Shown piece by piece: positions 56,795-58,987 of a DNA stretch of 64,000 bases. The translations under genes were made by a program, and so were the position numbers. The notes beneath the pieces are model-generated. The model saw nothing but the letters and a program-made list of their open reading frames with translations. It ran no database searches and was not told where the DNA came from. The stretch covers positions 256,001-320,000 of the forward strand of contig CAVUKB010000005.1 of NCBI GenBank assembly GCA_963741955.1. Reading direction: 5' to 3'. This stretch comes from an uncultured Acidobacteriota bacterium (GTDB lineage Bacteria; Acidobacteriota; Thermoanaerobaculia; Gp7-AA8). Every line of letters begins with the position of its first letter. Within the stretch, counting starts at the first letter, position 1.

Positions 56795-56897
56795 CTGCGC
56801 ACCGGACAGCTGAATCGTCGAACGCGGCCGGACATCCGGTCGCGTTTTCTTTTGGGGCGTGCAAGCACCCCGGCGCGTCGTGCACGGGCTCCGCGCA

Positions 56898-57040
56898 GGG
56901 GGTCAGAGCCGCCGTTCCGACGTCTCGAAGCGACACAGGGGGTCAGAGCCGTTCTGCCAACGTCCCCCCGTCAAATGGGGTCAGAGCCGTCTTGCCGACG
57001 TCCCCGGGTCAAACGGGGTCAGAGCCGTCTTGCCAACGCC
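56898..57040. repeat. Four direct 38-40 bp repeats beginning GGGGTCAGAGCCG
   Basis: Copies at 56899, 56939, 56977, 57015, between convergent genes. Confidence 0.85.
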
Positions 57041-57071
57041 CTGAAGGGAAACCCCGCTCCAGGGTGACGTT

Positions 57072-58733
57072 TCACGACCCGGCAGGTCCGGTCGACAACA
57101 GATCGATCGTCGGCCGCCGGTGCACCGCAACTGCCCTCCCGGACGGATCCGCTGACGCCGCGAACGCCGAGTCCCAGGCGATCGCGGCCGGCGTGCTGCA
57201 GGCGATGCTCGGGCCGCCCGGAACCAGTCGCGCGAAAGCATCTCCCGGAAAATGCCGCTCGAACATGCACCGGTAGAGATACCCCTCCGCCGTCACAGGC
57301 GGGTTGAGCGGAAACCGGGAGGCCGCGCTCGCGAGTGCGGCGTCGGAGATCTCCTCGCGCGCGAAGTTCTTCAATGCATCGATCCACCGGTAGCCGACAC
57401 CGTCGGAGAACTGCTCCTTCTGCCTCCAGAGAATCTCGGGAGGAAGATCGCCCTCGAATGCCGAACGGAGCACGTGTTTCTCGATCTTCCCATCCCGCGC
57501 CATCTTCTTCTCGGGATCCATCGACATCGCGAGATCGATGAATTCGCGGTCGAGGAACGGCACTCTCACTTCCACTCCCCACGCGGCCATCGATTTGTTC
57601 GCCCTCTGGCAGTCGTAGGTGTGGAGGAGCTCGAGTTTCCTCACTGTTTCCTCGTGAAATGCCCGCGCGTCCGGAGCGCGGTGAAAATAGAGATACCCCC
57701 CGAAGATCTCGTCCGAGCCCTCACCGGAGAGAACCATACGGACTCCAGCCGATCGAATGCGTCTGGCGAGAAGGTACATCGGAACCGATGCACGCACGGT
57801 GGTCACGTCGTACGACTCGATGTGGTAGATCACGTCCGAGAGCGCATCGAGTCCCTCCTCCACCGAAAACGTGAACTGCCGATGCTCCGATCCGATCGCT
57901 TCGGCGACGCATCGGGCCGCCTCCAGGTCCGGCGACTCATCCAGTCCGATCGCGAAGGAGCGGAGTCTCGCATCGGGATCGATCTTCCGGATCGCCCGTG
58001 CCGCAGTCTTCGCGATGATGGATGAATCGACGCCCCCGGAGAGGAGGACGCCCCACTCGACGTCACTCATCAGTTGGCGCTCGACCGCCGATGTCAATCC
58101 ACGCCGGATGTCGTGAATCCCTACCTTCCCTCCTTCGATGTTCCCGTACTCCCGCCATTCGCGCGGCTCCCGCGCGGTGATCACACCGGTGGCGCCGTCG
58201 AGAAGACTCCCCGGAGGGAACTCCTCGACGAATGCATCGAGCCCGGTCAGGCTCTTCACCTCCGAGGCGACGTAAAGCGCGCCCGATGCGGCGCGTGCGT
58301 AGTAGAGCGGTACGACGCCGACCGGATCGCGGCCGATCAGATACCGGCGGGATTCGCGGTCGTAGAGAACGAAGGCGAAGATCCCGTTCAGGTGGCTCAC
58401 CAGATCCACCCCATATTCGCGGTAGAGCGGGAAGAGCACCTCACAATCGGATTCACTGACGAACGGGAACGAAGGGAAGCGCTCGCGAAGCTCACGATGG
58501 TTGTAGATCTCACCGTTCACCGCGAGGACGAGGTTTCCGTTCACCAGCGGCTGCGCTCCGTTCTCCGGTGCGACGACCGCCAGCCGCTCGTGAACGAGAA
58601 CCGTCCGATCGTCCGCGAAGACTCCGCGCCAGTCGGGACCTCTGTGCCGCTGACGCCGAGACTGCTCGAGAGCGAGCTGCTTCAATCCGAGGGTGCCCTC
58701 GGGGGCATCGAGAATGCCGAATATTGCGCACAT
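57072..58733 (-). CDS. asnB: Asparagine synthetase B (glutamine-hydrolysing)
   Basis: N-terminal MCAIFG (Cys2), HRGPD, NGEIYNH, LLSGGVDSS, SGEGSDE, WRQKEQFSDGVG. Confidence 0.95.
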   Translation of the reverse strand: MCAIFGILDAPEGTLGLKQLALEQSRRQRHRGPDWRGVFADDRTVLVHERLAVVAPENGAQPLVNGNLVLAVNGEIYNHRELRERFPSFPFVSESDCEVLFPLYREYGVDLVSHLNGIFAFVLYDRESRRYLIGRDPVGVVPLYYARAASGALYVASEVKSLTGLDAFVEEFPPGSLLDGATGVITAREPREWREYGNIEGGKVGIHDIRRGLTSAVERQLMSDVEWGVLLSGGVDSSIIAKTAARAIRKIDPDARLRSFAIGLDESPDLEAARCVAEAIGSEHRQFTFSVEEGLDALSDVIYHIESYDVTTVRASVPMYLLARRIRSAGVRMVLSGEGSDEIFGGYLYFHRAPDARAFHEETVRKLELLHTYDCQRANKSMAAWGVEVRVPFLDREFIDLAMSMDPEKKMARDGKIEKHVLRSAFEGDLPPEILWRQKEQFSDGVGYRWIDALKNFAREEISDAALASAASRFPLNPPVTAEGYLYRCMFERHFPGDAFARLVPGGPSIACSTPAAIAWDSAFAASADPSGRAVAVHRRPTIDLLSTGPAGS

Positions 58734-58766
58734 CTTCGTCTCCTCCTCTCCCGGATCCTTCCGGGC

Positions 58767-58798
58767 AAAAGAAAAGGCCCGCACGTTGGTGCGGGCCT
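58767..58798 (-). terminator. Attenuator terminator upstream of asnB
   Basis: Minus strand AGGCCCGCAC-CAAC-GTGCGGGCCT followed by TTTCTTTT, lying between the leader ORF and the asnB RBS. Confidence 0.85.
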
Positions 58799-58823
58799 CG
58801 TGTCAATTTCGAATGGAAAGGAT

Positions 58824-58949
58824 CTACACGTGCCGCACCGTATGCGCCCTGCGATTGTTCAGATTGAAGTTGGGACGTGCGTCGACGGCCGCGCGAGAGG
58901 TCACGCGAGCGGCAGAACGGACGACAGCCGGATCGGCGATGCGGGGCAT
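58824..58949 (-). CDS. Putative Asn-rich leader peptide of asnB (41 aa)
   Basis: MPRIADPAVVRSAARVTSRAAVDARPNFNLNNRRAHTVRHV*; 4 Asn in 6 codons; not in the ORF track. Confidence 0.75.
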   Translation of the reverse strand: MPRIADPAVVRSAARVTSRAAVDARPNFNLNNRRAHTVRHV

Positions 58950-58958
58950 GAGGCTGAA

Positions 58959-58987
58959 AGAGTGCCCGAATCGGGCTCCCGAGTCAA
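58959..58987 (-). promoter_or_regulatory. Putative sigma70-type promoter of the asnB leader
   Basis: TTGACT-17 nt-CACTCT, 9 nt upstream of the leader ATG (near-leaderless). Confidence 0.5.

Follow-up and report, generated by a model that had tools for sequence, protein, structure and literature searches.

Leader-peptide attenuators are known in enterobacteria for trp, his, leu, thr, ilvGMEDA, ilvBN, as well as pheA, as set out in PMC1183508. The element analyzed here lies before asnB on the minus strand of the window (the whole stretch of 64,000 nt that was analyzed, from an uncultured Acidobacteriota bacterium) and resembles those systems in having a short ORF in which codons for the downstream product are clustered, an antiterminator overlapping the end of that ORF and a predicted intrinsic terminator ahead of the first gene. 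Unlike them, it uses Asn control codons, matches no sequence family, starts its leader mostly without a Shine-Dalgarno (SD) sequence and close to the promoter, shows no clear protector hairpin, still folds the antiterminator in untranslated nascent RNA, and is found in Acidobacteriota, Rhodanobacteraceae and other groups. Judged by the folding models, the asnB element would display every testable feature of the trp/his-type class, the protector hairpin aside.

A second kind of relative comes from mycobacteria, where bioRxiv 10.1101/834739 describes polycysteine attenuators encoded by leaderless sORFs, which are SD-less, unannotated and located near the transcript start, with clustered Cys codons, and shows that sORFs of this leaderless kind are able to sense amino acids. 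The asnB leader is likewise unannotated and SD-less and clusters codons for the amino acid made downstream. The mycobacterial sORFs, in contrast, read Cys, and Ms5788 is controlled translationally by SD occlusion, whereas the asnB element has a terminator and keeps the SD outside its hairpins.

No Rfam family reached its gathering cut-off in the window or in 20 homologous loci; Leu_leader (RF00512, 24.3 bits, cut-off 50), Trp_leader (RF00513, 17.8 bits, cut-off 41) and Thr_leader (RF00506, 17.5 bits, cut-off 55) gave sub-threshold matches, all on the terminator. T-boxes were absent among the 14 Rfam matches to E 10 in the window and none was found in the 20 homologous loci. Eight leader peptides compared with NCBIfam and Pfam fell in no family; Pfam gave just two weak matches, with E values of 0.085 and 0.26, both well below the cut-off. 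T-box riboswitches bind uncharged tRNA, translation not being involved, and AsnC, the regulator of E. coli asnA, is a DNA-binding protein; what both have in common with the asnB element is that asparagine or aminoacyl-tRNA genes are placed under control by Asn status.

One half of the arrangement has probably appeared in print. Supplementary Table S8 of PMC2965389 (2010) has entries for a terminator 62-65 nt before asnB in five Xanthomonas genomes, with the attenuator annotation '-'; further entries are one terminator ahead of asnB in Shigella and two ahead of asnA in streptococci, also without attenuator annotation. The Xanthomonas distance is of the same order as that in the Rhodanobacteraceae loci of our set and, going by these published rows, the Xanthomonas terminators are probably the terminator half of the asnB element; thus this half was flagged in 2010, in entries that give no leader ORF, no Asn codons and no mechanism. 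Full-text literature searches returned no asparagine attenuator, an earlier prediction in the subscription literature being possible; term look-ups in the main texts of PMC5314783, bioRxiv 10.1101/834739, PMC2965389, PMC4833913, PMC1183508, PMC8632094, PMC11109978 and PMC6429828 did not meet the word asparagine, and one supplementary file of PMC8632094 gave no hit. The mechanism is textbook, while the Asn specificity and the lineages appear undescribed, and we hold it highly probable that the locus represents the classical attenuator mechanism with a new amino-acid specificity.

The asnB leader and its predicted alternative hairpins

The gene asnB (57072..58733, minus strand, ATG at 58733) encodes an asparagine synthase B of 553 aa which matches the NCBIfam equivalog PRK09431 with 733 bits (cut-off 499), and no co-directed gene follows it. 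Four imperfect 38-nt direct repeats (core GGGGTCAGAGCCG), possibly a REP-like element, occupy 56891-57044, between the 3' ends of asnB and of a converging thioredoxin-like gene.

Reading along the minus strand, the putative -35 hexamer TTGACT (58982..58987), a TTGAC-type hexamer being found in the same place in most homologues of the class, is separated by 17 nt from the putative -10 hexamer CACTCT (58959..58964), whose equivalents in homologues are GATACT, CATACT, TAGACT or TAAACT. These are the hexamers of the promoter proposed in the preliminary description, and they are indeed there, though as a weak sigma-70-type match scoring 8/12; a consensus promoter scan called no promoter at the locus. 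The spacer also holds a small inverted repeat, GCCCGA-T-TCGGGC (58965-58977), a possible operator or a chance occurrence.

The leader ORF (58824..58949, 41 codons) starts 9 nt after the -10 hexamer and no SD sequence precedes its ATG; with the transcription start placed from the hexamers, its 5' UTR would be about 0-6 nt. A GTG at codon 16 was considered as an alternative start, is also SD-less and was judged less likely than the promoter-adjacent ATG. As had been claimed, the only Asn codons of the ORF (27, 29, 31 and 32; AAC, AAU, AAC and AAU) form one cluster, Asn27-Phe-Asn29-Leu-Asn31-Asn32 (58854..58871, AAC-TTC-AAT-CTG-AAC-AAT), which we assign as the control codons on the basis of sequence, rarity in the genome and conservation.

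Fourteen nt past the last Asn codon lies GGUGCGG (58833..58839), the 5' strand of the antiterminator, and its predicted complementarity to CCGCACC (58788..58794), a segment common to the terminator 5' arm/loop and the antiterminator, was borne out. The outer helix GGUGCGG:CCGCACC encloses a second one, CGUGU (58826..58830) with ACACG (58803-58799), so that the antiterminator, first described as a 7-bp pairing, is longer than that and reaches 19 pairs in the minimum free energy (MFE) hairpin (-20.6 kcal/mol, z -3.3, 1/200 shuffles equally good; the RNA folded starts 9 nt past the last Asn codon and ends in the terminator loop). The predicted intrinsic terminator (58774..58799) begins 24 nt after the leader ORF and has a 4-nt loop, an energy of -21.9 kcal/mol and a z of -5.7, none of 200 shuffles being equally good. 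It had been given as 10 bp with a U-tract; the U-tract UUUUCUUUU (DNA TTTTCTTTT, 58767..58775) is present, and the stem folds as 11 pairs, 10 of them Watson-Crick plus a closing G-U. A strong asnB SD sequence, AGAGGAGGAG (58740..58749), follows where the ribosome binding site had been placed, outside both hairpins. Both folds need the stretch CCGCAC and are mutually exclusive. At this locus the whole antiterminator hairpin beats shuffled sequences (p 0.02), and the duplex between leader end and terminator arm, taken alone, is no better than shuffles (p 0.17). No convincing protector (anti-antiterminator) hairpin was found at the source locus, the leader's own fold having a z of 0.02 against shuffles.

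The preliminary description had also proposed that a ribosome stalled on the Asn codons would leave GGUGCGG free and that one at the stop codon would cover it. Constrained folding, in which only RNA 3' of the ribosome is free, the footprint is assumed and the transcript ends at the terminator loop, reproduced this geometry: P(antiterminator) was 0.86 with any of the four Asn codons in the A site. It had dropped to at most 0.03 by codon 34 with a 12-nt footprint, by codon 35 with 9 nt and by codon 36 with 6 nt, which puts the loss 2-4 codons past the Asn codons for the three footprint sizes. In early nascent RNA lacking a ribosome the antiterminator likewise had a P of 0.86, falling to 0.50 at 58778. 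Once the terminator is complete it wins at equilibrium in every modelled state (P 0.99), and control must therefore be kinetic and co-transcriptional.

That same equilibrium value suits a constitutive terminator which ends transcription of the upstream gene or fixes a basal level of asnB, the Asn codons being a by-product of an A-rich unpaired stretch, and so do the co-directed TolB-like gene upstream (60089-59181) and the failure of the consensus scan to call an asnB promoter. We regard this as very improbable. The hairpin lies about 380 nt past the upstream stop codon, between the promoter and asnB, and the comparison of loci given below adds that the upstream neighbors differ from genome to genome and the leader keeps its place before asnB, that the Asn codons are in the frame of an ORF stopping 14-33 nt before the terminator in 42 loci, and that antiterminators are matched to their own terminators, all of which speaks against it.

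Occurrence of the Asn cluster in the source genome and before asnB

The source genome (5.44 Mb, 63% GC, 99.1% complete) contains 105,425 stop-to-stop frames of 8-70 codons, and at least four Asn in six codons were found in just four of them, the asnB leader included. Two of the other three are copies of one frame before a transposase-like ORF, and the third has no clear downstream gene. Moreover, among the 33 short-frame ORFs ending 10-45 nt before one of the 255 terminator-like hairpins of the genome, which were called with a detector slightly different from that used on the homologues, the asnB leader alone has at least three Asn in 10 codons. The two copies, on contig C7 near 64,588 and 656,455 (minus strand), are identical, with four consecutive Asn codons before a 411-aa transposase-like ORF; this frame is probably end sequence of the transposase-like element, and no terminator was seen there.

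Another locus of the same genome, outside the window (L177:245-376, contig C1), has a 24-codon ORF with six Thr, MATFTKDGAGTRTTSTRSSGHPCR, right after tRNA-Val(GAC). The end of this ORF, CCCTGTC, is complementary to GACAGGG, the 5' arm of a terminator before thrS (TIGR00418, 715 bits), and no Rfam leader matched the locus. From its sequence it is a candidate Thr attenuator, and such a Thr-rich leader and terminator before thrS would make leader-peptide attenuation plausible in this organism.

This type of asnB is patchy, being present in 30/401 genomes of the class, in 5/96 genomes of the family besides the source, and in 37/401 genomes of the phylum; from the latter 37 genomes we took 30 loci, 26 of them new. 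In total, the comparison took in 135 asnB loci, each having an upstream region of 150 nt or more, one 5'-truncated locus being omitted and two duplicates dropped, and terminators were called by a rule blind to Asn with a cut-off of -16 kcal/mol or better. Forty-nine of the 135 loci had a terminator passing this cut-off. A leader ORF with at least two Asn in 10 codons preceded 42 of these 49, ending 14-33 nt before the hairpin, and 35 of the 49 reached at least three Asn. The remaining seven comprise two Vibrio gene ends with three Asn, which are false positives, four loci with 0-1 Asn and one without an ORF. Two borderline loci, L043 (two Asn, weak U-tract) and L036, were kept outside the counts.

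All five same-family genomes holding asnB have the Asn leader and the terminator (e.g. MFGPNRNDPNSNPARWDGAGGSLL in L002 and MKRRNSNNATSNSLNTNFSATGGLLP in L005). Across the class, the terminator is present in 13/30 loci and the leader in 12 of those 13, nine of them with at least four Asn and the five family relatives being among the 12, and many of the loci that lack the leader have asnB directly behind another gene or a promoter. Elsewhere in the phylum, family f51 has leader and terminator in 14/16 loci. Eight loci of Dyella and Rhodanobacter were positive, with one more recognized by eye (L080), and the cultured carriers include Dyella jejuensis (L100) and Rhodanobacter lindaniclasticus (L073); three Rhodanobacteraceae loci were negative, among them one whose upstream region comprised just 279 nt. 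Gemmatimonadota were positive in 3/5 loci, and single positive records came from Rubricoccaceae, Weeksellaceae, Gammaproteobacteria and Acidobacteriota. Thus the layout recurs before asnB with unrelated sequences, in records from five phyla, and no Asn attenuator was found in the loci examined of Vibrio, Photobacterium, Shewanella, Aeromonas, Pantoea, Chryseobacterium and Bacteroidales. Conservation of the Asn cluster in relatives, named beforehand as a point on which the reading could fail, is accordingly seen in 5/5 loci of the family, in 12/30 of the class and in distant phyla.

The loci keep little else of the peptide. For statistics we used 38 of the 42 positive loci, leaving out four near-copies from one genus, and in these 38 leaders Asn is the commonest residue (180/1174), against 1-2% in the adjacent AsnB; the peptides are 17-42 aa long and, apart from Asn, keep neither length nor sequence across loci. 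The upstream neighbors vary between genomes and the leader remains with asnB. In five Rhodanobacter and Dokdonella loci (L060, L064, L069, L073 and L095) one to several palindromic repeats of the GGCCATCCATGGCC type lie between attenuator and asnB, and with these insertions the distance between the terminator and the asnB start codon grows to as much as 226 nt.

Pairing, spacing and codon choice in the leaders

The terminators before asnB belong to unrelated types (GGCCCGCAC, GCUCCCC, GCUCCUUC, GGCCCGCC, ACCCCGG, CCGAUUCGCG and CCUCUUGUC), each with its own complement in the leader end, so the antiterminator and terminator sequences change together between lineages, a pattern that the preliminary description had proposed to look for in such upstream regions. 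In 25 hand-picked representative loci, the longest helix of a leader end with its own terminator arm had a mean of 7.3 Watson-Crick pairs, compared with 5.2 pairs with the arms of other loci and 4.7 pairs when the leader segment ahead of the Asn cluster was taken instead; not one of 20,000 swap permutations reached the observed sum, a p value that is optimistic because the loci are kin and the representatives were hand-picked. Taken locus by locus, p 0.05 was reached by the duplex in 20/38 and by the whole hairpin in 24/38, and missed in 18/38 and 14/38, respectively. In the aligned family f51 (nine sequences) pairing within the antiterminator helices amounts to 97% and one base pair alternates among A-U, G-U and G-C, covariation there being not significant (144/500 shuffles); for the 12 class leaders the alignment is too loose (47% mean identity) for a column-wise covariation analysis.

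The antiterminator starts a median of 11 nt past the last Asn codon (MAD 2); the distance from its strand to the stop is 16 nt (MAD 4) and that to the terminator 48 nt (MAD 5). When the ribosome model was applied to the 25 representatives, sequestration of the terminator arm was 0.72 while the A site lay within the Asn cluster versus 0.24 at the stop, the former being higher in 25/25. Over the 38 loci, mean sequestration was 0.75 when the A site was 1-3 codons short of the last Asn, 0.68 on the last Asn itself, 0.41 two codons past it and 0.24 at the stop; part of this drop is expected because less RNA stays free as the ribosome advances, and the switch point is equally tight to the stop codon (IQR 7-9 codons) and to the last Asn (IQR 2-4).

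The antiterminator strand occurs in all three reading frames, therefore it is kept as RNA and not as peptide. This bears on the idea that a ligand or protein switch (riboswitch, T-box or RNA-binding protein), or a tnaC-like arrest by the nascent peptide, operates here in place of hungry Asn codons. Past the Asn cluster many of the leaders are rich in Arg (159 Arg/1174), and alternative hairpins are common to such systems; Arg codons are, however, expected in GC-rich pairing strands, neither the length (17-42 aa) nor the peptide is conserved apart from Asn, and the Rfam comparison of the window and the 20 homologous loci yielded no family at cut-off. Of all the explanations considered we give this one the least credence.

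Regarding initiation, in 10/12 class leaders a gap of 6-12 nt separates the end of the best promoter match from the start codon, and a match of at least four bases to AGGAGG was found in 2/37 scored leaders. Since the promoter adjoins the start and an SD sequence is mostly absent, the leaders are, from their sequences, probably leaderless or nearly so, several of the hexamer matches outside Acidobacteriota being poor.

The choice between the two Asn codons is biased. AAU makes up 58/104 of the leader Asn codons versus 15/188 in the adjacent asnB genes, its share being higher in 24/24 loci (the AT-rich locus L076 was omitted), and it also exceeds the U-ending use of the other NNY two-codon families in the same leaders (18/58, p 0.003). 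In PMC1183508 control-codon bias is attributed to the selective charging of isoacceptors, an explanation that cannot apply to the Asn leaders because the source genome has a single tRNA-Asn(GUU), which decodes both Asn codons. The candidates are slower wobble decoding of AAU and a need for an unpaired segment.

The first of these candidates leads to a sensor of ribosome speed, in which the AAU preference would report slow wobble decoding, caused for example by loss of queuosine on tRNA-Asn or by general translation stress, together with or instead of asparagine supply. Queuosine affects NAU decoding, and the other tRNA families that carry it are Asp, His and Tyr. The AAU excess over both asnB and the other NNY codons, the single tRNA-Asn, which leaves no room for isoacceptor choice, and the presence of tgt in the source genome are consistent with it. 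We nevertheless find it unlikely: the regulated gene is an asparagine synthase, AAC supplies the other 46/104 codons and the window leader has two of each, Asp, His and Tyr are not enriched in the leaders (23, 23 and 5 of 1174), and AAU could simply keep the segment unpaired. A broader proposal, that these loci form an undescribed attenuator class of at least five phyla with near-leaderless, AAU-selected ORFs, through which asnB senses both Asn supply and the queuosine state of tRNA-Asn, is speculative and seems to us rather doubtful. The reading preferred here remains one in which the Asn codons report the supply of charged Asn-tRNA.

Asparagine supply and the proposed control of asnB

The source genome carries AsnRS and tgt, and neither gatB nor asnA was found in it at 99.1% completeness; its Asn-tRNA should thus come from free asparagine. 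Five more genes of the genome score above the cut-off of the broader TIGR01536 family and are longer, distant paralogues, so asnB may not be the sole source of asparagine. AsnRS was present in 56/56 phylum genomes with this type of asnB (the source genome and 55 others), with or without leader, and for this reason it does not discriminate the leader carriers. gatB is found as well in 18 leader-bearing genomes (four of the window's family and 14 of family f51), where it is a possible second route to Asn-tRNA; the simple picture is therefore weaker in those genomes, but not in the source genome. gatB presence does not discriminate leader-bearing genomes either. It was above cut-off in only 23/60 genomes searched and missing from most of the Thermoanaerobaculia examined.

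In both trees a long branch carries the AsnB of the window, which falls outside the clade formed by its family. Monophyly with the family was not rejected (p-AU 0.07), and we make no claim that asnB and the attenuator arrived as one unit. The CCGCACC type of attenuator in the window resembles those of other families, and a transfer shared with AsnB is possible.

We consider it very likely that the element is a ribosome-dependent transcription attenuator reading the supply of charged Asn-tRNA. We infer its transcription start, leader translation, termination and response to asparagine as follows. RNA polymerase would start a few bases upstream of the leader ATG, at which a ribosome would initiate without an SD sequence. 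With ample Asn-tRNA, the ribosome would clear the four Asn codons and cover GGUGCGG, the 11-bp terminator would form and transcription would stop near 58767, some 35 nt upstream of asnB. Under a shortage of Asn-tRNA, the ribosome would wait at Asn27-32 and leave GGUGCGG free to pair with CCGCACC once this is made, so that the terminator could not nucleate and asnB would be transcribed. The switch would be kinetic, not one of equilibrium.

If this is true, asparagine becomes one more of the few amino acids that leader-peptide attenuators sense, and the mechanism operates in Acidobacteriota, Gemmatimonadota and Rhodanobacteraceae, about whose gene regulation very little is known. With one tRNA, two codons and AAU favored, the design raises the question of what determines the choice of control codons in the absence of isoacceptors, and the SD-less start raises that of whether leaderless initiation can be coupled to RNA polymerase tightly enough for the control of termination. 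The 220-nt element would also serve as a compact asparagine biosensor.
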